Part shown: in pieces, positions 2,946 to 16,546 of the stretch
Position numbering within the stretch: position 1 is the first letter of the stretch
Layout: each line of letters begins with the position of its first letter
DNA from: Candidatus Heimdallarchaeota archaeon B3_Heim
GTDB taxonomy: Archaea > Asgardarchaeota > Heimdallarchaeia > Hodarchaeales > Hodarchaeaceae
Assembly (NCBI GenBank): GCA_003144275.1
Contig: NJBF01000014.1
Coordinates: forward strand, 1 to 32,000
Reading direction: 5' to 3'
Length of the DNA stretch: 32,000 nucleotides
Notes under the pieces: generated by a model
Told to the model about the DNA's origin: nothing
Seen by the model: the letters and a program-made list of their open reading frames with translations, nothing else
Database searches by the model: none
Program-made: the position numbers and the translations under genes

Positions 2946-4967
2946 TTGTCAAGCGAATATGATGCAAGTAGTATACAGGTTTTAGAAGGCCTTGAAGCGG
3001 TTCGTCGCCGTCCTGCTATGTATATTGGAAGTATAGATGAAAATGGGCTCCATCATCTGGTTTGGGAAATTGTTGACAATTCAGTGGATGAAGCCATGGC
3101 TGATGTTTGTGACAATATTATTGTGATATTAAGTCAAACAGAGCATGGACAAGAATCGATAACCGTTCAGGATAATGGTAGGGGAATTCCTACTGAAATT
3201 CATCCACATTACAACATATCTTCTTTAGAACTAGTAACAACTCGATTGCATTCTGGAGGGAAATTTGACCATGAGTCGTACAAAGTTAGCGGTGGACTTC
3301 ATGGGGTCGGGATTGCTGTTGTGAATGCATTATCTCGGTGGATGCAAGTAAAAGTAAAAAGAAATAACCGGGTACAAATGCAAGAGTATGTTAGGGGTGA
3401 AACAATATCCCATGGAGTGATCAGTGTTGAGGAGGAATGGGATCATGAAAGTGGAACCTATATTACTTTTATCCCAGACCCTGAAATCTTCGAAGTAACT
3501 AGGGTAGATGTTGTTACTATCCGAAATCGCTTACGGGAATTAGCTTTCTTAAATAAAGGTCTAACAATTACACTTATAGATGAAAGAAAACATGACCTTC
3601 CTATTTCTGAGTCACAAAGTGATTTAGGAGAAAATGAGACACAAACACAGTCTGAAACTACAGAAGATTTGGGTAGTGAATCGCCAGTTAACAAATGGAT
3701 TTATCATTTCGATGGAGGGATAAAAGCATATGTCGATCAACTTGCGGTAACTCGTATTCATGATGATATTCCTTATTTTGATGTGAATGTAGAGAAAATG
3801 CAGGTAGAAGTAGCACTTGTTTATGACCGTTCTGAAAGAGATTTGATTAATACCTTTACCAATAATATTAATACAAGACACGGGGGAACACATTTATCAG
3901 GTTTCAAATCCGGATTAACACGAGCGTTAAATGCCTATGTTTTGAAAAATGAACAATTAATTCGGAATCCACATTTGAAGAAGGGATTAAAAGAAAAAAG
4001 ATCTATTTTTACTGGAAACGATGTCCGTGAAGGTCTAGTTGCGGTGGTTTCTGTGAAAATCATGAACCCTCAATTTGAAGGGCAAACTAAAAGCAAATTA
4101 GGAAACAGTGAGGTCAAGGGAGTGGTAGAGAGCTGTGTGTATGAAAATGTACTCAAATTTCTTGATGAACACCCTGAAAGTTCTCGGAGTATCATAGAAA
4201 AGTGTGAAGCGGCCGCTACCCTGCGTATGAAGTTTCGGCAAATTCGTGAGGCAGTTAGAAAAACGCAAGGAAAGGGTTCAGGAAAATTAGTAGATTGTGC
4301 TGTTTCAGATCCTGCGAAACGGGAAATCTTTTTGGTTGAAGGAGATTCCGCTGGTGGAAGTGCTATTGAAGGTCGATTTAGTGAATTTCAAGCCATTCTA
4401 CCATTACGTGGTAAAGTTATTAACGTTGAAAAGGCTCGATTAGAGAAAGCAATGAAAAACAAGGAAATACTTGAGATTATACGAGCAATTGGAGCAGGGT
4501 ATAAAGAAAATTTCCGGATTGAGAAAGTACGTTATCATAAAATTGTTTTATTAATGGATGCAGACATTGATGGTCATCATATCATTTGTCTTCTTTTAAC
4601 ATTCTTCTTCAGATATATGCCTGAATTAATCGACGAAGGATATCTTTATATTGCACAGCCTCCGTTATTTCGAGTTAAAAAGGGAAATAAAGAAGTATAC
4701 GTTGTTTCGGAACAAGAAAGAGATGAAATTATACAATCGTGGGGAGGAAAAACGGAAATAAGCCGATTTAAAGGCCTTGGAGAGATGAATCCAATTCAAC
4801 TTCGTGAAACCGTAATGGATCCAGAGAAAAGAATTCTGCTTCAGGTTACTCGAAAGAATCTCATTGATGCTGAACGAATGTTTGTCACACTGATGGGTGA
4901 AGAAGTGGCACCTAGACGTGAGTTCATTGAAGCTCACGCTTTAGAAGTGGAGAATTTAGATATATAG
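2946..4967 (+). CDS. gyrB: DNA gyrase subunit B
   Basis: YDASSIQVLEGLEAVRRRPAMYIG, EIVDNSVDE, DNGRGIP, SGGLHGVG (GHKL); EGDSAGG, PLRGKVINVEKA, DADIDG (TOPRIM); RFKGLGEMNP. Confidence 0.97.
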   Translation: MSSEYDASSIQVLEGLEAVRRRPAMYIGSIDENGLHHLVWEIVDNSVDEAMADVCDNIIVILSQTEHGQESITVQDNGRGIPTEIHPHYNISSLELVTTRLHSGGKFDHESYKVSGGLHGVGIAVVNALSRWMQVKVKRNNRVQMQEYVRGETISHGVISVEEEWDHESGTYITFIPDPEIFEVTRVDVVTIRNRLRELAFLNKGLTITLIDERKHDLPISESQSDLGENETQTQSETTEDLGSESPVNKWIYHFDGGIKAYVDQLAVTRIHDDIPYFDVNVEKMQVEVALVYDRSERDLINTFTNNINTRHGGTHLSGFKSGLTRALNAYVLKNEQLIRNPHLKKGLKEKRSIFTGNDVREGLVAVVSVKIMNPQFEGQTKSKLGNSEVKGVVESCVYENVLKFLDEHPESSRSIIEKCEAAATLRMKFRQIREAVRKTQGKGSGKLVDCAVSDPAKREIFLVEGDSAGGSAIEGRFSEFQAILPLRGKVINVEKARLEKAMKNKEILEIIRAIGAGYKENFRIEKVRYHKIVLLMDADIDGHHIICLLLTFFFRYMPELIDEGYLYIAQPPLFRVKKGNKEVYVVSEQERDEIIQSWGGKTEISRFKGLGEMNPIQLRETVMDPEKRILLQVTRKNLIDAERMFVTLMGEEVAPRREFIEAHALEVENLDI

Positions 4968-4989
4968 CAAATAGAGGGATGAATTTAAG

Positions 4990-7497
4990 ATGAGTAGCAA
5001 TATTAAGATTACACCTATTGAAAAAACTATGGCCAAGAGTTATTTGGAGTATTCAATGTCTGTTATAACAAGCAGAGCGCTTCCCCACGTGAGGGACGGT
5101 TTGAAACCTGTTCATAGACGAATTTTGTGGGCAATGTATAATTTAGGATTAACTCATAACCGACCACCGAGGAAATGTGCTCGAACTATTGGAGAAACGA
5201 GTGCAAAATATCATCCTCACGGAGGAAATTCGGTTTATGACGCGTTGGTTAGAATGGCTCAACCTTTTTCTCTCAGATATCCCTTAATTCAGGGTCAAGG
5301 TAACTTTGGAAGTATGGATGGACAACCCGCTGCAGCAATGCGTTATACTGAAGCCAGAATGGCTGAGATCTCTAATGAAATTCTTATGGACATCAATAAA
5401 AATACTGTTGATCTTGTAGACAATTTTGACGGGTTGGATAAAGAGCCAGTTATTCTTCCTGCAAAGATTCCTAATCTTCTTGTTAATGGAGTTATGGGGA
5501 TAGCTGTTGGAATGGCAACCTCTATGCCCCCTCATAATTTAGGGGAAGTCTTAGATGGAGTTAAAGCCGTAATTGAGGATCCAGAAATTTCCATAGTAGA
5601 TTTAATGAAATATATTCCAGGCCCCGATTTTCCCACGGGAGGAGTAATTTTCGGCACCAAGGGGATCAAGCGAGCTTATCACACAGGAACAGGTAATGTA
5701 GTACTTAGAGCAAAATATGAATTTGAAGAGAAAAAAAATAAAACTAGTATTGTAATAACAGAAGTTCCTTATCTCGTAAAACGACAGGATACAATAGAAC
5801 ATCGCGGTTTAGTTGATATAATTGAGCGAATGAAAGAAGCAGGTAAATTCCCAGAAATTGGAAGTGTTAAGAATGAATCCAACATCATTCGGGGTACAAG
5901 AATTGTCATCAATCTGAAACACTCAGCCAACATCGAAGTTGTGTTGAATCGCTTGTTTAAATTTACTCCTATGCAAATCTCGTTTTCCATCAGAAATATG
6001 GTTCTTGTAGATGCAAAGGTGGGTGATGAGGTCAAAATTCGCCCGAAAAATTTAAACTTAAAAGAACTCCTAACTCAATTCATTGATCACAGACATGAGA
6101 TAATCGTACGTAGAACAGAATTTGATCTAAAAAAAGCCCGCGAAAGAGCTCATATATTAGAAGGAAGAAAAATTGTTGTTGAAAATCTTGATGAAGTAAT
6201 TAAAATCATTAGAGGATCAAGTAATGGATCTGAAGCCCAAACTGCTTTGATTAGTAAATTTTTGTTTTCCGAGATCCAAGCGAAAGACATTCTCGCATTA
6301 CCACTCAGGAGCTTAACACGATTTGACAGGGACAAAATTCTCCAAGAGTACAAAGAAACTCTAGAAGCAATTAAGGATTATGAAGATATATTGGGGAGTG
6401 AACAACGTATCATAGACATAATAGTTACTGAAATTGATGAAATTAAATCCAAATATGGAGACCCAAGAAGATCAAATATTGTCCTTGATGACTCAGATAG
6501 CTATGAAAATTGGACTGACAAAACAGAAGAAGATTTCATCACGAAAGAGGATATTGTTATCACTTTAACATCTAATGGTTATATTAAGTCGATATCCACC
6601 GATATGTACAATTCCCAACATCGTGGGGGTAAAGGTATTAAGTCAATGGATATAGGAAAAGACGATTTCTTACAGGAAATGATCGTTGCCTCAACTCACG
6701 ACACAATTTTGTTCTTCACAGTTCATGGTACTGTCTATCGTTTTCGCGGATTTCAGATTCCGATGTCTAAACAACGGGTTACAAAAGGAGTGAATATTGT
6801 AAATCTTCTCAAAATGGATAGAAGTGATAAAATCGTTGCCATCATCCGTGTTACTGAATTCAATCCAGATCACTATCTGGTTTTAGCAACTAAAAATGGA
6901 ATAATTAAGAAGTCTTCTTTGTCTGAATATGAAAATATCCGTTCTACTGGGATTATTGCACAAAAACTACGCGATAATGATATGATCATTGGAGCTAAAG
7001 TTACTGATGGCACTAAAGGTATCATCCTTGCCACGAAAAAGGGAAAAGCGATTCGGTTCAAAGAATCTGATGTACGAGTTGTGGGTAGGAGTAGTATCGG
7101 GGTAATGGGAATACGACTCAATTCAGACGATTCTGTTATAGATTTAGCTATTGTGGATGAAAATAGGACTCTTTTGACCATATGTGAGAATGGCTATGGT
7201 AAACGATCTACATTTGATAAATATCGAATTACAAGGCGAAATGGAAAAGGAGTTATTAATATCAAAGCAACTAAACGAAATGGCGATGTGATTGCTGTAA
7301 AAAGTGTAAACGAAAAGGATTTACTTTTAATGGTTGCGAATGATGGGAAATTAATTCAAATACCACTTGAAGATATACGGGCGATTGGTCGTGCAACTTC
7401 TGGAGTAACTTTGATGCGTTTAGAGAAAGATAGTGGGGTAAAAATTTCATCTGTTGCAATAATAGCAGGTGGTAATTCTAACCAGGGAGTTGATTGA
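4990..7497 (+). CDS. gyrA: DNA gyrase subunit A
   Basis: RDGLKPVHRR, KYHPHG, catalytic AAMRYTEAR (Tyr119 at 5344-5346), GyrA-box QHRGGKG (6616-6636) and beta-pinwheel repeats (e.g. GRSSIGVMGIRL, GRATSGVTLMRL). The GyrA-box marks gyrase rather than ParC. Confidence 0.97.
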   Translation: MSSNIKITPIEKTMAKSYLEYSMSVITSRALPHVRDGLKPVHRRILWAMYNLGLTHNRPPRKCARTIGETSAKYHPHGGNSVYDALVRMAQPFSLRYPLIQGQGNFGSMDGQPAAAMRYTEARMAEISNEILMDINKNTVDLVDNFDGLDKEPVILPAKIPNLLVNGVMGIAVGMATSMPPHNLGEVLDGVKAVIEDPEISIVDLMKYIPGPDFPTGGVIFGTKGIKRAYHTGTGNVVLRAKYEFEEKKNKTSIVITEVPYLVKRQDTIEHRGLVDIIERMKEAGKFPEIGSVKNESNIIRGTRIVINLKHSANIEVVLNRLFKFTPMQISFSIRNMVLVDAKVGDEVKIRPKNLNLKELLTQFIDHRHEIIVRRTEFDLKKARERAHILEGRKIVVENLDEVIKIIRGSSNGSEAQTALISKFLFSEIQAKDILALPLRSLTRFDRDKILQEYKETLEAIKDYEDILGSEQRIIDIIVTEIDEIKSKYGDPRRSNIVLDDSDSYENWTDKTEEDFITKEDIVITLTSNGYIKSISTDMYNSQHRGGKGIKSMDIGKDDFLQEMIVASTHDTILFFTVHGTVYRFRGFQIPMSKQRVTKGVNIVNLLKMDRSDKIVAIIRVTEFNPDHYLVLATKNGIIKKSSLSEYENIRSTGIIAQKLRDNDMIIGAKVTDGTKGIILATKKGKAIRFKESDVRVVGRSSIGVMGIRLNSDDSVIDLAIVDENRTLLTICENGYGKRSTFDKYRITRRNGKGVINIKATKRNGDVIAVKSVNEKDLLLMVANDGKLIQIPLEDIRAIGRATSGVTLMRLEKDSGVKISSVAIIAGGNSNQGVD

Positions 7498-10400
7498 AGG
7501 TGCCTGCTTCAAAACCGTCTAAAAAAACTATTAATAGTGAAAAGGTTGTAAGAAGATCCGCAGCGGATTTTTTCCAAGATAATAAAGCTATAGCGGGTTT
7601 CGATAATAGTATGAGGGTTGTTTTTACCAGTGTTCGTGAATTAGTAGAAAACGGTCTGGATGCAGCAGAACGAATGGGTCATTTGCCAGAACTCCATGTA
7701 ACCATCAAGAAATTGCAGAAAGAAGAAATTGCTAGATTGTTAAACGTTAAGTCGTTTGAATCCTCAGAAAAACTCGATTTTCTACGATTAACAGTAAGAG
7801 ATAACGGGAGTGGGATACAGTGTGAATTTATTCCACCTCTATTTGGCCGTGTTTTAACAGGCAGTAATTATGGATCTCGACAATCTCGTGGACGATTTGG
7901 CCTTGGGGCGAAAATGGTATTGTTAAACGCAATGTCTTCTGTGGATTTACCCTTGATAATCAAATCTAAATACATTGATGAAGATTTTACAAGTTATCAC
8001 GAATTAATGATTAATCTTGCTGAGAATGAACCAATAATTCTCGCTCAACGAGAAATCCCCCAAAATACAACAGAAGCAATCATTGAGTCTGGCACAGAGG
8101 TTTCTGTTACCTTTACTGGAGCTTGGAATCTTGCCTCCCGATATATCTATGAATATTTCTCCCAATTAGCAATGATTACCCCATATGCAAGTTTATATAT
8201 CCAATATCCTGACTCAGAGGCACCAATTGAATTAGAACGTGTTGTCGAGGAGATGCCAGCATATCCTCGCATTGCTAAGGTTCATCCATGGGGGACCGAT
8301 ATAACTCAATTCAAAAGAGAATTGAATGTTACTCGCAGTGATACAATGGAAATTTTTCTCCAAGATCATTTCCAAGGGATGGGTCCAAAAACAGCACGCG
8401 ATTTTCTAGACTTTGTTAAAATTGATTATCAAACAAATCCAAAAAAGCTTAGTGCCAGTTCAATTCGGAGAATTATCCACGAAGGCTTTACAGTACCCGA
8501 CCGGGACAAAACCAAGAAAAAAGATCGAAAGTACTTTCCATTCAAACGACCTAGTGGAGATTCATTATCACCTCTTAGCTGGGAATTACTAGAGAAGGGT
8601 ATCATCAAAGAATTGTCTCCTCAATTTGCAAAAGCAACATCTGGAGAAGTTTCAGCATATGCTGGTCATCCATTTATAGTAGAGGCAGCATTGGCATATG
8701 GTGGTCCAAATCTTTCAAAGGAAGAAGGCTCTAGAGGAGCTAATCCAAAGATATATCGTTTCGCAAACAGAATCCCCTTACTTTTTGGTGCAGGGAATGA
8801 TATTATATCAAAATGCGTTCAAAAGATGAATTGGAAGAATTATAAAATTAATATTAACAAGGCACCAATAGCCATTGTCGTTTCGGTTGTATCCTCTAAA
8901 ATTCCTTTCCCCGAGACCAGTAAGGAATATATTGCCGATGTTGATGAGTTAAGAGTTGAAATACTACGTGTATTGAAGAAACTAGCAAGAGGATTAGGAC
9001 AACATCTGGGGAGAGCTGAACGAGAAAGAAGAGAGAGACAAAGACAATCGCGATTTGAAAGTGCAGCTCCTCGAGTCATACAAAATCTTTCACAAATCTT
9101 AATTTCAGAACATTCACCATATCTCTTAACATCGGGAGAAGAGATATCCAAGTTACAAAAGGCACTTGCCTCTGCTATTCCACGATTAGTAAGAAGAGCT
9201 TATCCTCCTAGTCCACAGATTTCTACTATCGGTGAATGGCTTCCAATGGATATTCACCTGAAGCTTGTTGAAAATAATATACAAACTATATATCAATTTT
9301 TACGAACACCTTTTCCTGAATTAAACAGTATCACAGGTATGTCTGTAGAAAGAATAGATGCTATTGTTAGAAAGACGGTTACAAAACAAGAACAAACATA
9401 TCGTTCTCCAATTGTTAGGGAGTTTGAATTCTTTTCTAAGGAAATTGAGAGGGATTTTTCAAAGTACAGAAACAGTAACACAATTCATAAGTCATTAAAT
9501 AAACGATGGATTGTAAATGCATTTGATTTTTTCTCTACCCCTACATCCCAATTACGAGAAGTAGAGGAATTTCCAGAAAAACTACTCTATGAAACTAAGG
9601 TAAAAGCAATTAGTGAATTTTTGGATTCTACTTCCGATGACACTTTTCGTCTTGGATTACTTCCCTGGTTAACTGGAGACATTGAAAAAAGATTTAAAAA
9701 TGCAAAAATAAATAACATTTTAGAATATCTTGTAATATTCCCAGAAAAGATCTCTTCTATTCCAAAATTGGCGATTCGTCTTATTGAGAGTGCCAAAGAA
9801 GAAATTCGAGAAGGAGTGGAAGGAGGGTATATTGATCCAGAAAAAGTAATCGGAGCATCGACTTTTGATTGGATGGATTATCGTGTAACACCAAAATTGC
9901 GAGGAAGAAAGATCTCCAAAATTAAAGAGTTCCTTAATTCGCCTTCAGAAAAGTTAGCTGAACTAAATGAATTAATTGATAACTTGATAATTAAATCCAA
10001 AAATAATTTGAAGGAATCTTTTCACACGTATAATGATAATACTTCATTATTCAGAATACCTGGTATTCAAGAATCGATGATATCCGATTTGGAACGACTC
10101 GATATTCACGGGTTTATAGATTTTCTCTTAACGAATGAGAAGGACTTACTCATTGTCCGTGGACTGATTGATGCCCTAATACTCATCAAACAAGATGAGA
10201 TTCTTGATGAAATTAATGCAACTTTTGATCCTGTTCCAATTAAAAATGCTTTTTGGCTTGATTTGGAACTGGAGAAGATTCTCTTAAAAAAAGGCATTTC
10301 AACAATCTTTGATTTTATTAGCCATCCAACCACGGAATTACGGAAAATAAAGGGGATAGATTCCATGGTATTAAAGACAATTAAAAAAACCTACGGAACA

Positions 10401-13400
10401 CCTATTACTTTACTCGATAAAGAAACAATTGAAAAATTAGAATCATTAGAAATTCTATGCCTTGAAGAGCTGATTTCTGTCATTTCACAAGATAAAATCA
10501 AACCTAAAGCATTATCTGGGAAGGTGAAGGGAGTATTAGAACAGTTAAACGTACCTATATGTTACTTACCAATTCCTAGCAAATATTATTCATTACTTCA
10601 TCATTTAGGAATATCAAAAGTGATAAATTTTCTAATCTGGCCTGATAATGACTTGCATAGAAAATCGGGAATTTCTTACAAAATAATTGAAGATATTAAG
10701 AGTAAAATTACGTTAGAGGGTATCCAAAAGCAGATACAACTCAAGAAAAGACCGATTTCGATTCTGGCAAATAACCTTGAAGGAAAATCTTGGACAAATC
10801 TTCTTAATTCTGATATTAATGTCCAAGAACTTTATTATAATCTACCGTATGAAGAAAGCGCAATTAAAAAGCTTCAACTAACTCAAAAAGAAACTAATAC
10901 GTTGATAGATTTATTTAATACTCCCATTACTCGATTATCACATATTCGACCAAGATGGGTTGATAGTTTGAGAGGTGGTGGAATAAAATCATTTATCGAT
11001 TTTATTTCATGGTCCCCTGATGAAATTGCGGGAATAATCGGCCGAGATACAGAATACGTTTCAGATTTAACAAAGAATATACCTAAATTTTCTGATGGAA
11101 TGGCTTTGATAGATCTCGGGGTGTTTACAGCAGCCGAACTGAAAACATTAAAGACTCGTGGATATTCCACAGTTGAAAGTGTTTACTTCTGTGCAGATAA
11201 GCAAACATTTGGAATCATGGGTGTTAAATGGAAAAAGATTGAGAGATATCAAAGAATTCTCGAAACTCCAATTGCAATGATTCAATTACAAGCAAGCAGT
11301 GATAAATCCCAAATTAGATTTTCTCATGATGGTTTGGAGGGTCTAGCAAACAATGGAATAGACCAAATTATCAAATTGATCTATTGGCCACCAAATGAAC
11401 TTAAATCAATACTAAACATGTCTCAAAAGCGAATAGATGAACTAAAACAAGCTGTTGCTATTAAAGAGCATGGAATGCCCCTGGAACATGTTGCTGGATA
11501 TAATCGTAAAACAATTTCGACATTAACGAATTATGGTATTGAAACCGTCGAAGATTTATATTTTAGTGCTAATGAAGATATGCTAGATGAAGAAGATGAC
11601 TTAGATTTTTCTTATGTGAAGAAAAGTATTGAAGCTCTTGATCTTCCAATAACTTATCTAAATGGGATTATCTCACCTAAGTATGTTGAAAAACTTGTTA
11701 ATTATAGACTCGACACGATTTTACGTTTCTTAATTTCCTCTCCTAATGAATTATCAAATGTTTTAGAAACCCCACCTGAAAATGTTGAGAACCTGCGGAA
11801 TAAGGTTAACCTTATGCGTCTACGGGAATCAACAGAGACTTCTGCCTCAATAATCGAGGGATTAACTAGGCAACAAAACCGTGCAATGGCAGAAGAGAAA
11901 ATTTTGTCTGTTTATGACTTTTTGACGACACCAGATGAACAGTTTGCTAATATAATTGAGACTGAACCAGAAATGATTAAAACAATGAAACAAGAGTTAA
12001 ATTTCACAAGCATTAAAACGATCAAAGAAGAAAAAATGATCCCATTAACTAAAATTTCGTTGTTTGATAAAAACACTGTTAAAAAATTCGCCCGATATGG
12101 AATTGAAAGCTTAGCTGACCTTTATTATGTCGCTACTCCCAAATCCTTACAGGAAAGTGATCTGGAATGGCAAACTATATTAGACACCAGATTAGTGCTG
12201 GAAATGCCAATTGAGACGAGTACTATAATTACTAAATCTGAACTCAAGGCCTTTCACCAAAAGAAAATTCTTACAGTATTCGATTTAATGATAGATTCAT
12301 GGGAGGAGATGAATAAAAAAACAGGAATTGATATCGATAGAATTAAGAAGATTCAGGAATCTATTCGCATTACTGAAATAATTAATCTACTAAAAAATCT
12401 TTCAATTGAAAGAATCGATTTTCCACCCGATTATTTACAAAAGATAAAAGCAAAGAATCTAGCCACGGTTTATAATCTACTTATCTCAACAGAAGAAGAC
12501 CTATATCTGAAAAAGCATAAGGAAAAGAAGATCCGAGTAACCACTGAATTGTGGACTGATTTATTTACAATTTTAGCAATTCCACTGTACCTAATACTGG
12601 GTTCTGAGAACGAGGACGTTAAAAAATTAAAGCAGAAAAAAGTTGATACGATACGGCACGTGTACTCTATTGATTCTGAAAAACTTACAAATATCTTGGA
12701 GCAACCTGCAGAAACGCTCTATTCTGAGCTAAATAATCTCGATACTAAAGAACTTACTCAACTATTAGCTATACCAATTAGTTTTATACCCTCTTTGCCA
12801 GTAGAATGGTTTTTCCCTTTACGAAATAATTCTATTCTTCGGGTAGGGGATTTTATTAGGCTTAACCACCGAGATTTGGCATCATTGGTATCAGCGTCTT
12901 TTCCTAAGATTCGATCTGTCTTCAATGATATCAATTTTGCCTCGTTAATGAAAAAGTTAGAGGAAGAGGCTATTCAAGTGACCAAATTATCAAATATTTT
13001 ACCTCCTCAAACTATTAATAAGTTATCAACGAAAGGAATAACTTCTTTGCAAGCATTGATTCTTTTCAGTACTGATGAATCGAAACTGGATGACATCGAT
13101 GATTTTTTGCGAATACTGGATGGTCCAATTAATAGATTATCTGACGAGTTTCAAGTAGCTGATTTACGTAAAATGTCTAATTCTGGTATTACTACCCTTG
13201 CTTCATGGTTTTCTGCTCCTAACGACGGCTTATCAACAATTTTAAGAATGAGACAAAAGGATATAAATGATCTAAAACAGAATTTTAATTTTGAATTGGC
13301 TGGAAAAGTTATTGATTCAGAGACAACAGTGTCTAGTATTGTTGAATCTGGTTTTATTGATTTTAGTGAATTATCTTCACATAAAGTCAACACTCTCGAA

Positions 13401-14453
13401 GATCTATTATTCATTGAAATTGAGACGATTCACGCTTCTGATCAGTTTAAATCTCGATTAAATGGTCTACGTGATGCACTAAACTCTTCCCTTGCATATT
13501 ATTCTTTAGTTCCCTCTGCTTATGTAGTACCGCTTGCATTTAATGGAATTACATCTGTTTACAATCTAATTCAAACAGAATTTTCCCAATTAGAAGATCC
13601 GACTGGCGTAATAACAGAGGAATCTTATAACTTCGCTAGAAATTCAGTAAATTTAGTAGACATCTTAACTCACAAGAAAACAGAGTCTGAATTCCGAGTG
13701 AAGCTTTCTTCTTTACGAGCTTTTACTCCTAATCAACTTACAAAGATACAGGAACTTGGTGTTGATAACGTAATTGATTTATACTTTCGATTAGACTCCG
13801 AAAGATGCCCAAAATCCTTGATACCAGCGATAGATGGTGTTAAGCGAGTTCTTGAGAAACCTGTTGCAGTTTTACCTCTTGTTAAGGAAACTTTCCCCGA
13901 AAAAATTCCTTTGCTGTATAATGTTGGTCTAACCTCAATTATAGAATTCTTGTTCTGGAATAAGGATGAACTGGCTGAAATTCTTGAGGTAAAAAGATAT
14001 GAAATTTCCAAATATCGAAAAGTTAATCTCTCTGAGTTGAAACGGAAGAAGAATTTGGGAACTCCTATCCAGAATTTTGTTCGTCTTTCAGAGAAATATT
14101 ATGAACCACTACATGAATTTGGTATTGACAATATTGAAGATCTGTATTTTAATGGTAAACGGTATGCTAAATTAATTCCTGATGAGCTAGTTCCTCAAAA
14201 AGTATTGAATGCCTGCATATCTGACTTAGAAATGCCTGTAGTAAAACTAGCTGAACTACCCATACCATCTGCTCAGGAGTTAGTTAAGAAAAGAATCACG
14301 AGAATTATTGATTTTATTTATTGGCCAGATGAGGATTTGAAGAAAACTCGTGGTCTTTCTGCTGCAAAAATAAAAAAGATAAGATCTAATGTTAGATTAC
14401 GAAGGAAAACTGATGTTTTAGGTCAATTGGACTCCTATATGGGAGGAAATTAA
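7494..14453 (+). CDS. top6B: DNA topoisomerase VI subunit B with a ~1750-aa C-terminal extension of tandem HhH-like repeats
   Basis: RELVENGLDA, DNGSGI, SRGRFGLGAK (GHKL); H2TH (FQGMGPKTA); RFANRIPL, WKNY (8832-8843) and KIPFPETSKE (transducer). The TTG start overlaps the gyrA stop (TTGA) with a GGGAG SD. No stop occurs until 14453. Confidence 0.93.
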   Translation: MKVPASKPSKKTINSEKVVRRSAADFFQDNKAIAGFDNSMRVVFTSVRELVENGLDAAERMGHLPELHVTIKKLQKEEIARLLNVKSFESSEKLDFLRLTVRDNGSGIQCEFIPPLFGRVLTGSNYGSRQSRGRFGLGAKMVLLNAMSSVDLPLIIKSKYIDEDFTSYHELMINLAENEPIILAQREIPQNTTEAIIESGTEVSVTFTGAWNLASRYIYEYFSQLAMITPYASLYIQYPDSEAPIELERVVEEMPAYPRIAKVHPWGTDITQFKRELNVTRSDTMEIFLQDHFQGMGPKTARDFLDFVKIDYQTNPKKLSASSIRRIIHEGFTVPDRDKTKKKDRKYFPFKRPSGDSLSPLSWELLEKGIIKELSPQFAKATSGEVSAYAGHPFIVEAALAYGGPNLSKEEGSRGANPKIYRFANRIPLLFGAGNDIISKCVQKMNWKNYKININKAPIAIVVSVVSSKIPFPETSKEYIADVDELRVEILRVLKKLARGLGQHLGRAERERRERQRQSRFESAAPRVIQNLSQILISEHSPYLLTSGEEISKLQKALASAIPRLVRRAYPPSPQISTIGEWLPMDIHLKLVENNIQTIYQFLRTPFPELNSITGMSVERIDAIVRKTVTKQEQTYRSPIVREFEFFSKEIERDFSKYRNSNTIHKSLNKRWIVNAFDFFSTPTSQLREVEEFPEKLLYETKVKAISEFLDSTSDDTFRLGLLPWLTGDIEKRFKNAKINNILEYLVIFPEKISSIPKLAIRLIESAKEEIREGVEGGYIDPEKVIGASTFDWMDYRVTPKLRGRKISKIKEFLNSPSEKLAELNELIDNLIIKSKNNLKESFHTYNDNTSLFRIPGIQESMISDLERLDIHGFIDFLLTNEKDLLIVRGLIDALILIKQDEILDEINATFDPVPIKNAFWLDLELEKILLKKGISTIFDFISHPTTELRKIKGIDSMVLKTIKKTYGTPITLLDKETIEKLESLEILCLEELISVISQDKIKPKALSGKVKGVLEQLNVPICYLPIPSKYYSLLHHLGISKVINFLIWPDNDLHRKSGISYKIIEDIKSKITLEGIQKQIQLKKRPISILANNLEGKSWTNLLNSDINVQELYYNLPYEESAIKKLQLTQKETNTLIDLFNTPITRLSHIRPRWVDSLRGGGIKSFIDFISWSPDEIAGIIGRDTEYVSDLTKNIPKFSDGMALIDLGVFTAAELKTLKTRGYSTVESVYFCADKQTFGIMGVKWKKIERYQRILETPIAMIQLQASSDKSQIRFSHDGLEGLANNGIDQIIKLIYWPPNELKSILNMSQKRIDELKQAVAIKEHGMPLEHVAGYNRKTISTLTNYGIETVEDLYFSANEDMLDEEDDLDFSYVKKSIEALDLPITYLNGIISPKYVEKLVNYRLDTILRFLISSPNELSNVLETPPENVENLRNKVNLMRLRESTETSASIIEGLTRQQNRAMAEEKILSVYDFLTTPDEQFANIIETEPEMIKTMKQELNFTSIKTIKEEKMIPLTKISLFDKNTVKKFARYGIESLADLYYVATPKSLQESDLEWQTILDTRLVLEMPIETSTIITKSELKAFHQKKILTVFDLMIDSWEEMNKKTGIDIDRIKKIQESIRITEIINLLKNLSIERIDFPPDYLQKIKAKNLATVYNLLISTEEDLYLKKHKEKKIRVTTELWTDLFTILAIPLYLILGSENEDVKKLKQKKVDTIRHVYSIDSEKLTNILEQPAETLYSELNNLDTKELTQLLAIPISFIPSLPVEWFFPLRNNSILRVGDFIRLNHRDLASLVSASFPKIRSVFNDINFASLMKKLEEEAIQVTKLSNILPPQTINKLSTKGITSLQALILFSTDESKLDDIDDFLRILDGPINRLSDEFQVADLRKMSNSGITTLASWFSAPNDGLSTILRMRQKDINDLKQNFNFELAGKVIDSETTVSSIVESGFIDFSELSSHKVNTLEDLLFIEIETIHASDQFKSRLNGLRDALNSSLAYYSLVPSAYVVPLAFNGITSVYNLIQTEFSQLEDPTGVITEESYNFARNSVNLVDILTHKKTESEFRVKLSSLRAFTPNQLTKIQELGVDNVIDLYFRLDSERCPKSLIPAIDGVKRVLEKPVAVLPLVKETFPEKIPLLYNVGLTSIIEFLFWNKDELAEILEVKRYEISKYRKVNLSELKRKKNLGTPIQNFVRLSEKYYEPLHEFGIDNIEDLYFNGKRYAKLIPDELVPQKVLNACISDLEMPVVKLAELPIPSAQELVKKRITRIIDFIYWPDEDLKKTRGLSAAKIKKIRSNVRLRRKTDVLGQLDSYMGGN
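9200..14400 (+). repeat. Protein-level tandem repeat array: ~25-28 degenerate units of P[IL]..L........L...GI.T[IV].D[FL], alternate units extended by P..EL..I.G....I..I
   Basis: Examples: KGISTIFDFISHPTTELRKIKGI, GISKVINFLIWPDNDLHRKSGI, GIETVEDLYF, GIESLADLYY, GVDNVIDLYF, GIDNIEDLYF, RITRIIDFIYWPDEDLKKTRGLS. Count is by eye; no obvious nucleotide-level identity between units. Confidence 0.85.
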
Positions 14454-14455
14454 AC

Positions 14456-15865
14456 GTGTCTGAAAAAAAACAACATACAATAGTTTTGGAAGATTATTCT
14501 TTCAAAAATAAAGTAATTAAAGTGAAAATGGAACAAAATGATACGGTTCAAGGAGTTATTGGTCTTATAAAGACTGCTCTTGGACTTAAAACAGAAAAAA
14601 TCCATATTTTATATGGATTTAAGAAATCAAAATCCTTTGAAGTTTTAACAAAAAAGAGCCTCTCAAAATTATGGGAAATGACTGATCAGGGAGATGTTGT
14701 ACTCCAGGTTCGCCGGAAAGTAAGTTTAACTGGATTAAAAAAAATAAGAGATACTGTCAGTGATTCAGATATTGATCTTCCAGTATCCATCTTGAAAGTT
14801 GATAATGTTTCTGCAGAAGAAACAAAATCTCGCTTAAATAGAGTCGCTTTAGAATTTCTGGATGAAATTGCTGAGGATCCACGGAATGCAGCTTTTCGGA
14901 TTCCCTCCCGAAGTTCTGAAAATGTCGGTTATGATAATAATTCTAAAATGGTTCTTCTAGGGAGTAATGTTGTTGACAGACAATTCCGTCATTTAAGTAG
15001 TGTACAAAGCGTCGTCCAATTAACGGGTTTAATGCGATATGTTACTGAAATTCTTGCTACTGAAAAACATGCGACAAAAAGACATTTATTTTATCGTGAT
15101 GTGAACCTTTTCGGAAATCAAAGAGTTTCTGATGGATTGATCGAGGATCTTGGAGCCTTACTACGTGTATCGAGAAATTCATTAAACGTTATTGCTACTG
15201 CGAAAGGAAAAGTTATTGGAAGGCTTTCTTTCACCGAAGGTGGCGATCATATTGATTGTACGAAAGGATTGGGTGGGCATGCAATTACCCCTATGCTTGA
15301 TCAGGTGGAGAACTTTGATAGTGATGCAGAATTCATGCTAATAATCGAGAAAGATGCAGTTTTCCAAGATTTAGCGGAGGATAAATTCTTTAATTATCTT
15401 CCCTGCATACTAATAACTGCCTCAGGACAACCTGACATGGCTACTCGGTTATTTATAAAAAAAGCATATCAAGAATTAAAAATTCCTATTTTAGGGTTCT
15501 TAGATGCTGATCCGTATGGATTAGACATTTTGAGAGTATATTCAATAGGTAGTAAAGCTTTGAGTTTTGAAAGTGTTGAGTTGGCTGTACCTGATATTCG
15601 ATGGTTGGGTTTATTACCTTCTGATATTGAGGAATATCAAATTCCAAAATCCGTTTTAATTAAAATGACAGAAAATGACAATAAACGAGCTGATGACTTG
15701 TTAAAAGAAGATTTTGTCAAATCACGTCCTGAGTGGGAAAAACAGATACTTATTATGAAAAATACAGGACATAAAGCTGAAATACAGGCGTTAGCAAGCA
15801 AGAATTGGCGGTATATGACTGGAACATATCTTCCGACGAAGATTGATTCAGCAGACTGGGTATAG
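14456..15865 (+). CDS. top6A: DNA topoisomerase VI subunit A (Spo11 family) with an extra N-terminal ubiquitin-like domain
   Basis: IPSRSSENV, catalytic TKRHLFY (Tyr213 at 15092-15094), IEKDAVF, GQPDMATR, DADPYG (TOPRIM DxD), KAEIQAL. GTG start 2 nt after the top6B stop with a GGGAGG SD at 14441-14446. Confidence 0.95.
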   Translation: MSEKKQHTIVLEDYSFKNKVIKVKMEQNDTVQGVIGLIKTALGLKTEKIHILYGFKKSKSFEVLTKKSLSKLWEMTDQGDVVLQVRRKVSLTGLKKIRDTVSDSDIDLPVSILKVDNVSAEETKSRLNRVALEFLDEIAEDPRNAAFRIPSRSSENVGYDNNSKMVLLGSNVVDRQFRHLSSVQSVVQLTGLMRYVTEILATEKHATKRHLFYRDVNLFGNQRVSDGLIEDLGALLRVSRNSLNVIATAKGKVIGRLSFTEGGDHIDCTKGLGGHAITPMLDQVENFDSDAEFMLIIEKDAVFQDLAEDKFFNYLPCILITASGQPDMATRLFIKKAYQELKIPILGFLDADPYGLDILRVYSIGSKALSFESVELAVPDIRWLGLLPSDIEEYQIPKSVLIKMTENDNKRADDLLKEDFVKSRPEWEKQILIMKNTGHKAEIQALASKNWRYMTGTYLPTKIDSADWV

Positions 15866-15877
15866 GTCTTTGGGTAT

Positions 15878-16546
15878 ATGTGTCCTCTTACATTCAGCAT
15901 TTTTCCTGAATTTAAGGGGAATTATTCCTATTATGCCCTCCAGAAAAATCTTGAATTGGTTGAAAGCGTTGTCCACTTCTCTAGAGGCCAATTCATGGGT
16001 CCAGAGAAAATTGAACTAATCAAAGAAAAACTAGGAAAAAAGTTGAAAGGGACCCGTTTTTACCCAGGAGGATCTAGTGTTCTTTTTGGATGGAGTTTTC
16101 CGTCTGAACAAGTAGGAAGGTTGATGTACAAACCATATTATACTCGACATTTGACTCAATTGCTTATCCATTATTTTTGTATTGGTGAATTCTTAACTTC
16201 ACTTAAAGAAATTGATTTAGAACCTGATATGCAACAAATTCATTTTATGATCCCAAAAGTAATTGGGATTGCAAAAATAGAGGCCTTTGAAAAAGAATTT
16301 CCAACTCTCATTGTTGAAGAAGTCCAAGGTGAAACTATTAAAAAGGATCTGCATTTAGTGAAAGCTATTAGTCATATAACGAAAAATCTAGGCTTGAAGG
16401 GACTTATATGTGACCCATATCCTGCTAATTGGAAGTATTACTCAGACCAAGACAAAGAACATATTTCTTACATTGATCTCTTTAGTTCAAACAAGCTTAA
16501 AGATATTAATGCACGCATTGCAAAATTGATTAATCAGTTACAATGA
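15878..16546 (+). CDS. Minimal protein-kinase-like fold protein (APH/RIO/Bud32-like pattern)
   Basis: Ordered motifs PGGSSVLF (Gly loop), LMYKPY (beta3 Lys), IPKVIG, LIVEEVQG (hinge), ICDPYPANW (DxxxxN catalytic loop), YIDLF (DFG-like). Starts 12 nt after top6A. Confidence 0.6.
   Translation: MCPLTFSIFPEFKGNYSYYALQKNLELVESVVHFSRGQFMGPEKIELIKEKLGKKLKGTRFYPGGSSVLFGWSFPSEQVGRLMYKPYYTRHLTQLLIHYFCIGEFLTSLKEIDLEPDMQQIHFMIPKVIGIAKIEAFEKEFPTLIVEEVQGETIKKDLHLVKAISHITKNLGLKGLICDPYPANWKYYSDQDKEHISYIDLFSSNKLKDINARIAKLINQLQ

Follow-up and report, generated by a model that had tools for sequence, protein, structure and literature searches.

Giant topoisomerase VI B subunits with a long array of predicted RAD51-N-terminal/alpha-CTD-like modules in Heimdallarchaeia

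The DNA described here comprises positions 1-32,000 of contig NJBF01000014.1 (assembly GCA_003144275.1) from Candidatus Heimdallarchaeota archaeon B3_Heim, an Asgard archaeon of the Hodarchaeales in the class Heimdallarchaeia, and this 32,000-nt stretch as a whole is referred to below as the window. It contains a giant open reading frame (ORF), which is a genuine gene and encodes the only B subunit of DNA topoisomerase VI (Topo VI; B subunit, Top6B) in this archaeon. Its first ~560 amino acids (aa) make up a complete and apparently functional Top6B, and they are followed by an arm of tandem modules, the predicted fold of which is that of the RAD51 N-terminal domain (NTD) and of the C-terminal domain (CTD) of the RNA polymerase (RNAP) alpha subunit. 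Giant Top6B is class-wide in Heimdallarchaeia, with lengths of 2.3k, 2.8-3.6k or 4.1-4.3k aa according to family.

Results

The top6B gene and its catalytic core

Window positions and strands of the gene and its parts are given below.

7494..14453, + strand: giant top6B gene, 2,319 aa plus stop codon, single ORF
7494..9173, + strand: canonical Top6B core, aa 1-~560, consisting of GHKL ATPase, middle region and transducer
9237..14417, + strand: arm of 28 tandem RAD51-NTD/alpha-CTD-like modules, aa 582-2308, delimited by iterated hidden Markov models (HMMs), AlphaFold2 (AF2) and fold matches
11091..11843, + strand: aa 1200-1450, where conservation within the arm is highest (26 orthologues with a mean of 71-78% identity to the query)
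11568..11609, + strand: acidic loop of a TVEDLYF-type module, near-invariant, aa 1359-1372 (...NEDMLDEEDDLDF)
14394..14450, + strand: C-terminal tip, aa 2301-2319, a basic patch (RLRRK) and then G-Q-L-D-S-Y-M, which resembles a PCNA-interacting peptide (PIP) box, plus three residues

The giant frame has zero internal stops or frameshifts. Two start codons are possible, namely TTG 7494, giving a 4-nt overlap with the end of gyrA, and GTG 7500, which agrees slightly better with the N-termini of orthologues; the choice is without consequence here. The core scores 423.7 bits against the NCBIfam Top6B equivalog PRK04184 (cut-off 274) over aa 14-541, contains the Pfam transducer domain Topo-VIb_trans (PF09239, E 7.6e-49) at aa 353-517 and a HATPase_c match at aa 47-142, and retains intact ATPase motifs (N-box ELVENGLDA at aa 49, G1 DNGSGI at aa 103, G2 GRFGLG at aa 133) together with the transducer motif WKxY, present as WKNY at aa 447. 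Because these matches and motifs are accompanied by an intact Top6A (see below), the core is taken to be a complete, apparently functional Top6B. An uninterrupted ORF of 2319 aa with a complete Top6B in its first ~570 aa had already been recognised in an earlier interpretation made from the DNA letters and their translations (the sequence-only reading), and the PRK04184 and PF09239 matches and the motifs agree with it. The giant ORF is the sole Top6B of this 94%-complete genome.

Layout of the repeat arm

Repeat units were found with two HMMs built from seed units and iterated on the Top6B protein itself. These recovered 28 units of ~55-65 aa each between aa 582 and 2308, of which 16-18 belong to a long subtype (LP.P....L...GI..I.DF..WP..EL..I.G.s..i..IK) and ~10 to a TVEDLYF subtype (L....GI.TVEDLYF, then a variable, often acidic loop, a long helix and L..P(I/V)). 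Units 1-4 are all of the long subtype, and from ~aa 850 onwards the subtypes mostly alternate, with long units spaced 120-128 aa apart and a super-repeat of ~122 aa; autocorrelation within the arm has maxima at 64-68, 114-128 and 362-376 aa. The sequence-only reading had put the array at ~25-28 repeats in alternating short and long units with a super-repeat of ~120-130 aa, and both the count and the period hold; its start for the repeats, 9200, lies just ahead of the first unit (aa 582, nt 9237). Paralogous units inside Top6B share just ~21% mutual identity, which points to an old array without recent expansion. A search of the genome with the unit profile matched no ORF besides top6B at E <= 0.01.

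The acidic loop has invariant alignment columns E162, D163, M164, D166, E167 and D169, and in the AF2 model it sits between helices within the most conserved block of the arm.

Fold of the modules

From a 27-sequence alignment, AF2 modelled aa 1200-1640 (predicted local distance difference test score (pLDDT) 79.8; predicted template modelling score (pTM) 0.62) as seven consecutive three- to five-helix modules with short beta-bridges between them; for aa 1900-2319 the pLDDT was 74.4 and the pTM 0.52. Single modules were compared with 48,161 PDB chains using VIA-align, which gave matches to RAD51-paralogue NTDs (8faz_C; Z 8.6, root mean square deviation 1.6 A, 57 aa), the AF1548 helix-hairpin-helix (HhH) domain (Z 8.4), the RAD51C NTD (8gj9_B; Z 7.8, 62/64 aa), the yeast Rad51 NTD (Z 7.3), the RNAP alpha-CTD (Z 6-7; 1z3e_B, Z 6.6-6.8), HhH regions of Y-family polymerases (Z ~6.5), NusA acidic repeats (Z 5.3-6.3) and SAM domains (Z ~5-5.7). 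Taken with the helix after it, a TVEDLYF unit also superposes on the alpha-CTD (Z 6.8, 57 aa), so both subtypes would be one fold.

At the sequence level, the unit profile matched the Thermus alpha-CTD 1doq at E 0.008 over 45/57 positions. Pfam scores summed over many weak units reached 81 bits for RAD51D_N (cut-off 27.3), 30.3 bits for RNA_pol_A_CTD (cut-off 23.8) and 35 bits for HHH_5 (PF14520; cut-off 27, no individual stretch passing alone), and no single arm unit exceeded Pfam thresholds by itself. Precomputed Pfam assignments on orthologues listed PF26169, HHH_XRCC3_RpoA. In the AlphaFold DB clusters, two proteins led the matches that span several modules, one annotated 'DNA topoisomerase I (fragment)' (E 4e-5) and the other an HhH class 1 protein. 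A Foldseek search of the PDB with the 441-aa model returned nothing under E 0.05, high probability being reached solely by local ~70-aa matches to RadA/RAD51, and phmmer with the whole tail against PDB sequences gave zero matches. Since the sequence and structure evidence are concordant, a RAD51-N-terminal/RNAP alpha-CTD-like (SAM-like, pseudo-HhH) fold with four to five predicted helices is accepted for the modules despite middling Z values. A likeness to the RadA/Rad51 NTD and the RNAP alpha-CTD had been noticed from the letters beforehand, and the Pfam sums, AF2 and VIA-align all bear it out.

Conservation of the array and integrity of the assembly

A search of 5.8 billion proteins yielded ~30 clusters of 2,279-2,330 aa, with 52-92% identity over the tail, the labels of which were Hodarchaeales, Hodarchaeota, Heimdallarchaeota and Ca. 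Hodarchaeum mangrovi. Alignment of 27 full-length orthologues from independent assemblies, closed genomes included, required 29 insertion columns in 2,348. Averaged over the orthologues in 50-aa intervals, identity to the query is 0.36-0.80 in the arm and 0.65-0.94 in the core, and 18% of arm positions and 50% of core positions are invariant across the 27 orthologues. From the near gap-free orthologue alignment and the low identity between units it follows that purifying selection keeps both the unit count and the length constant; the array is ancient, and each unit has a positional orthologue.

A contig from a related strain bridges 9141-9776, which holds the core-arm boundary, without a break, and metagenomes of marine sediment and cold seeps yielded contigs for parts of the gene, again with no joints; these metagenome contigs are short and of low depth, none spans the whole gene, and uncovered bins carry no meaning. 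The interval 9000-9400, which the sequence-only reading had singled out as a place where the assembly might be at fault, contains no stop, and no joint was seen in the contigs that cover the gene in part. Misassembly, chimerism, a pseudogene and a recent repeat expansion are ruled out by orthologue conservation and low paralogue identity. That the gene is an artefact, whether misassembled, chimeric or decaying, has a probability next to nil, given 27 independent orthologues equal in length to within about 20 aa, some of them in single-contig genomes, a frame without stops or frameshifts, the lack of joints in independent contigs and its place as the sole Top6B of the genome. Two runs labelled as metatranscriptomes also hold short contigs inside the gene; they are flagged as probably DNA and so were not used as expression evidence.

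Distribution of giant Top6B in Asgard archaea

Whole genomes were scanned with the transducer model and the lengths of the open frames were taken. Top6B ORF lengths were as follows.

Family of the window's genome: 2,312-2,346 aa
Two other families within Heimdallarchaeia, among them two genomes in a single contig: 4,140-4,305 aa
A second pair of other Heimdallarchaeia families: 2,816-3,587 aa
A Heimdallarchaeia family whose genomes encode Top6B twice: ~500 aa and ~1,110-1,155 aa
Remaining Asgard genomes, for the most part: ~500-680 aa
A family outside Heimdallarchaeia, in a different class: 2,286-2,293 aa, sharing the repeats of the window's Top6B

The length survey across Asgard genomes, which the sequence-only reading had proposed as a check, thus places giants in five families of Heimdallarchaeia and one family elsewhere. 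A single BLASTP alignment covers aa ~20-1625, with 34% identity to a 2,293-aa form and 30% identity to a 4,185-aa form, and the first ~17 units (~1,060 aa of the arm) are thus an ancestral block that is collinear between the forms. The segment aa 1200-1640 is an orthologous block found at a similar distance from the N-terminus in forms of 2.4k-4.3k aa. When 1.84 billion cluster representatives were searched exhaustively with a profile of this segment, 42 proteins were returned, nearly all of them giants or fragments, and a Top6B core was present at the N-terminus in 8/10 tested arm-matching representatives. With 42 matches only and no second match in the genome, the array is essentially private to Top6B. 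The class-wide reach of the giants to ~4,300 aa, the collinearity between lineages and a conserved PIP-box-like end (see below) go beyond what had been read from the window itself.

Genomes G071-G081 (family f7 of the class, locus L004) have two Top6B copies of ~500 aa and ~1,110-1,155 aa. In the L004 Top6B (1,123 aa, the shortest family member), the tail of ~580 aa contains canonical HhH motifs (HHH_5, 94.7 bits, three independent stretches, plus IMS_HHH), and on the strength of this tail the longer of the two copies may come close to a short, ancestral form of the arm. In the other Asgard class, the 2,293-aa Top6B at L005:2938-9816 (genome G100) shares the repeats of the window's Top6B over ~1,700 aa from its N-terminus; what can be read of the C-terminal part is Lys/Thr-rich, and the last residues are masked (X).

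The C-terminal tip

All orthologues (27/27) end in RLRR[KR]-x-[DE]-V-x-G-x-[LI][DE]x[YF]M plus 2-5 residues, in the near-invariant form RLRRK-x-DV-x-G-x-LD-x-YM, and the last 19 aa have an AF2 pLDDT <50 (predicted flexible). The tip was compared with the PIP-box reference consensus Q-x-x-[LIM]-x-x-[FY]-[FYW], and a hydrophobic residue at position 4 and an aromatic residue at position 7 are present at the flexible C-terminus of 27/27 orthologues. The genome has a PCNA gene, and its own clamp-client termini are ..NQSTLDKFFSG in Fen1, ..MKKLDQYF in RNase HII and ..KQLDDFLM in NucS; PolB and the Y-family polymerase end in Q-x-x-L-x-x-F-[FL]. The pattern L[DE]x[FY][FYLMW] occurs within the last 12 residues in 12/3,463 ORFs (0.35%; read from stop to stop, 120 aa or longer), and six of these 12 are DNA enzymes (Fen1, RNase HII, NucS, an HhH-GPD glycosylase, an N6/N4 DNA methylase and Top6B). 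No PIP-like tip was present in the short or otherwise extended Asgard Top6B termini examined (0/10). More distant giants of 2.3-2.5k aa have related tips (..VDKFF.., ..VDQYF.., ..QKTLDAML..), and giants of 3.5-4.3k aa end in long Lys/Ser/Thr-rich basic tails.

The Top6B tip matches the PCNA-interacting peptides of its own genome in place, context, flexibility and core pattern. That it is a PCNA docking site is possible and still doubtful, and it is treated here as a candidate. Predicting a complex of the C-terminal 420 aa with itself, with a view to dimerisation through the tip, gave no support and no verdict.

Similar ends were seen in other proteins of the genome. A protein of 320-350 aa without a Pfam match (G000:C4:90389-91441, - strand) has a Lys-rich stretch followed by a C-terminal ..GDSTLDEYF and is a candidate unrecognised PCNA client. 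PIP-box-like C-termini were also found in an N6/N4 DNA methyltransferase (G000:C30:73515-74297, + strand; ..KNTLDSYLETQE) and in a DUF72 protein (G000:C25:21820-22659, + strand; ..RQMTLQEFFS), and these two tips suggest clamp-linked methylation and a replication- or repair-associated DUF72.

Neighbouring genes

Genes beside top6B in the window are given below.

2946-4967, + strand: gyrB, directly upstream, same strand
4990-7497, + strand: gyrA, directly upstream of top6B
14456..15865, + strand: top6A, 469 aa, beginning 2 nt past the top6B stop

The window genes gyrB, gyrA, top6B, top6A and a 222-aa ORF are co-directional. Top6A matches TP6A_N (E 2e-17) and Toprim (E 7e-62) and keeps the catalytic Tyr (RHLFY), the Toprim Glu (LIIEK) and the DxD motif (DADPYG). 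Its N-terminus carries ~100 extra aa (window 14456-14800, Top6A aa 1-~115). Top6A is 469-473 aa long in 4 giant-arm loci (including L002, L003 and L005) and 398-417 aa long in 5 other Asgard loci (L004, L006-L009); with the longer form in giant-arm loci only, the extra N-terminal domain seems to co-occur with the giant arm, a hint of co-evolution.

The order gyrB-gyrA-top6B-top6A-small ORF recurs in Ca. Hodarchaeum mangrovi (L034:3452-17159; Top6B 54% identity), where synteny with window positions 2946-16546 also takes in a divergent Arf/Ras-like GTPase and an aminotransferase past the small ORF. This gyrase-Topo VI gene order is absent beside the fetched 4.2k-aa, 3.5k-aa and other-class giant Top6Bs. 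In the corresponding position, Ca. Hodarchaeum mangrovi encodes a 232-aa counterpart of the 222-aa ORF after top6A (15878-16546), and this counterpart has no Pfam match.

Discussion

Relation to known proteins

Canonical archaeal Top6B (PRK04184/TIGR01052; Saccharolobus shibatae, Methanosarcina mazei) has the same GHKL boxes, the same WKxY transducer and an adjacent top6A, and the giant form differs from it by adding 1,759 aa past the transducer, which makes it four times the normal size. In M. mazei and other gyrase-encoding Euryarchaeota, the addition to Top6B is only a ~100-aa Ig-like C-terminal domain (PMC9348778). Lineage-specific 'globular' C-terminal extensions of Top6B were reported in gyrase-encoding archaea, Asgard archaea included (Villain et al. 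2022, PMC9348778), and a CTD is listed for Asgard TopoVIB by Brinkmeier et al. 2022. The surveys of Topo VI diversity consulted here make no mention of a giant Top6B or of an HhH array (PMC9665070, PMC11302465, PMC9348778, PMC12680538, PMC8185306). The sequence-only reading had known of no description of this architecture, and likewise no paper on Topo VI or Asgard replication was found that reports an HhH array or a giant Top6B; the proteins are already labelled 'DNA topoisomerase VI subunit B' in databases, and it is the array architecture that is undescribed in the literature searched.

Topo V of Methanopyrus kandleri (type IC, tandem (HhH)2 tail; PDB 8df9) shares with the giant Top6B a layout in which a topoisomerase is followed by an HhH-type array. 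The enzyme class is nevertheless unrelated, since the giant protein is the ATPase subunit of a type IIB enzyme and not a type IC enzyme; there is no sequence similarity between the two, the structural match is weak (rank 26, E 0.88), and the giant arm is near-neutral and has no canonical hairpin motif. The likeness to Topo V is one of convergent layout, not of membership. The NTDs of RAD51/RadA, RAD51C, RAD51D and XRCC3 and the bacterial alpha-CTD (PF21794, PF14520, PF03118, PF26169) have the same single-module fold and the pattern L...GI.T..DL......EL..I.GIS....I, but these domains are single per protein, whereas the giant Top6B chains 28 of them in two alternating subtypes.

Top6B of the Loki type (1,013-1,135 aa) is also enlarged and also occurs in gyrase-encoding Asgard lineages, but its extra length is mainly an insertion between the GHKL domain and the transducer (transducer at aa ~720-866), with no HhH array and no PIP-like tip. 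It was considered as an instance of the same phenomenon and ruled out, because the extra length is internal and not HhH; the insertion is a separate, also undescribed, route to a larger Top6B. Examples are the Top6Bs of 1,123-1,135 aa at L007:285-3653 and L009:3277-6681 (genomes G226 and G303), one of which has a Rho_N/SAP-like C-terminal element.

A long arm with a proposed anchoring tip

In Topo VI structures, the C-terminus of the Top6B transducer adjoins Top6A and the DNA gate with its G-segment. Since the arm begins there, each A2B2 enzyme should bear two long, fairly ordered arms that project from the DNA-gate end (base). The near-neutral arm would serve mainly as a spacer, perhaps with weak multivalent contact to DNA, rather than as a sticky DNA binder, and the distal tip would be the anchor, here by way of a basic patch and a flexible PIP-box-like peptide that is a candidate dock for PCNA; in the sister lineages, the Lys/Ser/Thr-rich basic tail would bind DNA directly. 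Tethered in this way, Topo VI would stay on chromosomal or replicating DNA and have more opportunity to capture DNA crossings, which would suit an enzyme acting as a decatenase next to the gyrase whose genes lie just upstream. M. mazei Topo VI has been reported to be a preferential decatenase (Villain 2022, PMC9348778; McKie 2022 as cited there). Taken as a whole, the model, in which a long arm is anchored at its tip to DNA or to the clamp, is judged to be evenly poised between true and false.

A narrower version, in which Topo VI of the Heimdall group is clamp-tethered and both 28-module arms end in a functional PCNA-interacting peptide (or, in the sister lineages, in an H1-like DNA-binding tail), is tentative and leans towards the unlikely. 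If it were true, Topo VI would ride with the replisome or with clamps left behind on sister duplexes, and its core would be within arm's reach of precatenane crossings. We know of no topoisomerase VI that is a PCNA client, and the published Topo VI and Asgard replication literature that was searched held no link between Topo VI and a PIP box or PCNA. The PIP boxes of archaeal PCNA clients (Fen1, RNase HII, NucS/EndoMS, PolB, Y-family polymerase) lie at the same extreme C-terminal site, with a basic lead-in and an L-D-x-[FY]-hydrophobic core, and differ from the Top6B tip at position 1 and in the second aromatic residue.

Weighing the alternatives

Several findings weigh against a DNA- or clamp-anchored arm of HhH-type modules. 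The tip has L or V in place of the position-1 Gln and a Met, which is not aromatic, at position 8, with Gln, Arg or Lys at position 3 (the genome's own RNase HII and NucS likewise lack either the position-1 Gln or the second aromatic), and in the 3.5-4.3k-aa lineages no clear aromatic pair was found at the tip. Structural Z values of 6-8.6 are middling for small helical domains, and whether the arm is a rigid rod or a flexible chain is judged from pTM values of 0.5-0.6 alone. The arm is slightly acidic (pI 5.95, net charge -16) and the core is basic (pI 9.28); a hyper-acidic proteome as the cause was ruled out, since neighbouring proteins span pI 4.9-9.7. The canonical G-h-G hairpin (G[ILVMFY]G), the signature of classical HhH domains (PF00633, PF14520), occurs zero times in the 1,759-aa arm and 5 times in the 578-aa tail of L004. 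There is no general enrichment of Lys and Arg, which dominate at one unit position (84%, last helix; 573 units, 27 orthologues). The low pI, the missing G-h-G motifs and the lack of general Lys/Arg enrichment together argue against strong DNA binding along the arm, and these same findings bear on the proposal of the sequence-only reading, in which the arm was a long non-specific DNA-binding or wrapping device like that of Topo V. On that proposal the modules would bind duplex DNA non-specifically over the full length and wrap or track the flanks of the G-segment, conferring processivity, salt tolerance or an altered crossover preference, and the tip would be incidental. It can appeal to a fold shared with DNA-binding domains (RAD51/RadA NTD, alpha-CTD, HhH of Y-family polymerases, NusA acidic repeats), to HhH arrays as the closest multi-module structural neighbours, to the canonical HhH motifs of L004 and to the exit of the arm beside the DNA gate. 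Besides the charge and the hairpin counts, it is opposed by the second-hairpin Gly, retained in only ~36% of units, by the residue equivalent to Arg265 of the alpha-CTD, basic in ~40%, and by the separate, strongly basic tail of the sister lineages, which would be needless if the array bound DNA well; the arrays of the other giant lineages are likewise neutral to acidic. The proposal is unsupported as it was first stated, and we consider it unlikely.

A near-neutral charge and a near-invariant acidic loop would also suit an arm that makes no DNA contact and acts as a protein scaffold or spacer, recruiting chromatin, SMC, the replisome or the N-terminal domain of Top6A, or, in a variant, sterically limiting the sites open to Topo VI and so separating its work from that of gyrase. 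SAM domains, which the modules also resemble, and alpha-CTD, RAD51-NTD and NusA acidic-repeat domains all serve protein-protein contacts; the units are positionally conserved and almost free of indels, as expected of individual partners or a fixed geometry; Top6A is longer in the 4 giant-arm loci than in the 5 others; and there is the proposal, attributed to Corbett 2007 and Villain 2022, that C-terminal domains of Top6B 'sequester' the enzyme. The shortest family members nevertheless carry canonical DNA-binding HhH motifs, and the PIP-like or basic-tail tips indicate a DNA-linked anchor, and a pure scaffold is regarded as unlikely. A second enzymatic activity in the arm, for instance an apurinic/apyrimidinic (AP)-lyase or deoxyribose phosphate (dRP)-lyase such as that of the Topo V HhH repeats, would draw on the analogy of layout and on the 126 Lys/Arg positions of the arm that are conserved in class in 90% or more of orthologues; with no sequence likeness to Topo V (no PDB sequence match), a Foldseek rank of 26 for Topo V and no recognisable active-site signature of the lyase type, it is highly improbable. 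The model of a spacer arm with an anchoring tip is retained at the even strength given above.

Implications

A Top6B of 2,300-4,300 residues with a fixed, ancient array of 28 or more HhH-type modules is unexpected for topoisomerase specialists. Hodarchaeales strains have reportedly been isolated (bioRxiv 10.1101/2025.02.26.640444), so in-vivo work on these proteins may become feasible. The finding opens questions about the division of labour between Topo VI and gyrase where cells have both, about the physical coupling of a type IIB enzyme to the sliding clamp and about the mechanics of a very long, near-neutral chain of SAM-like modules.

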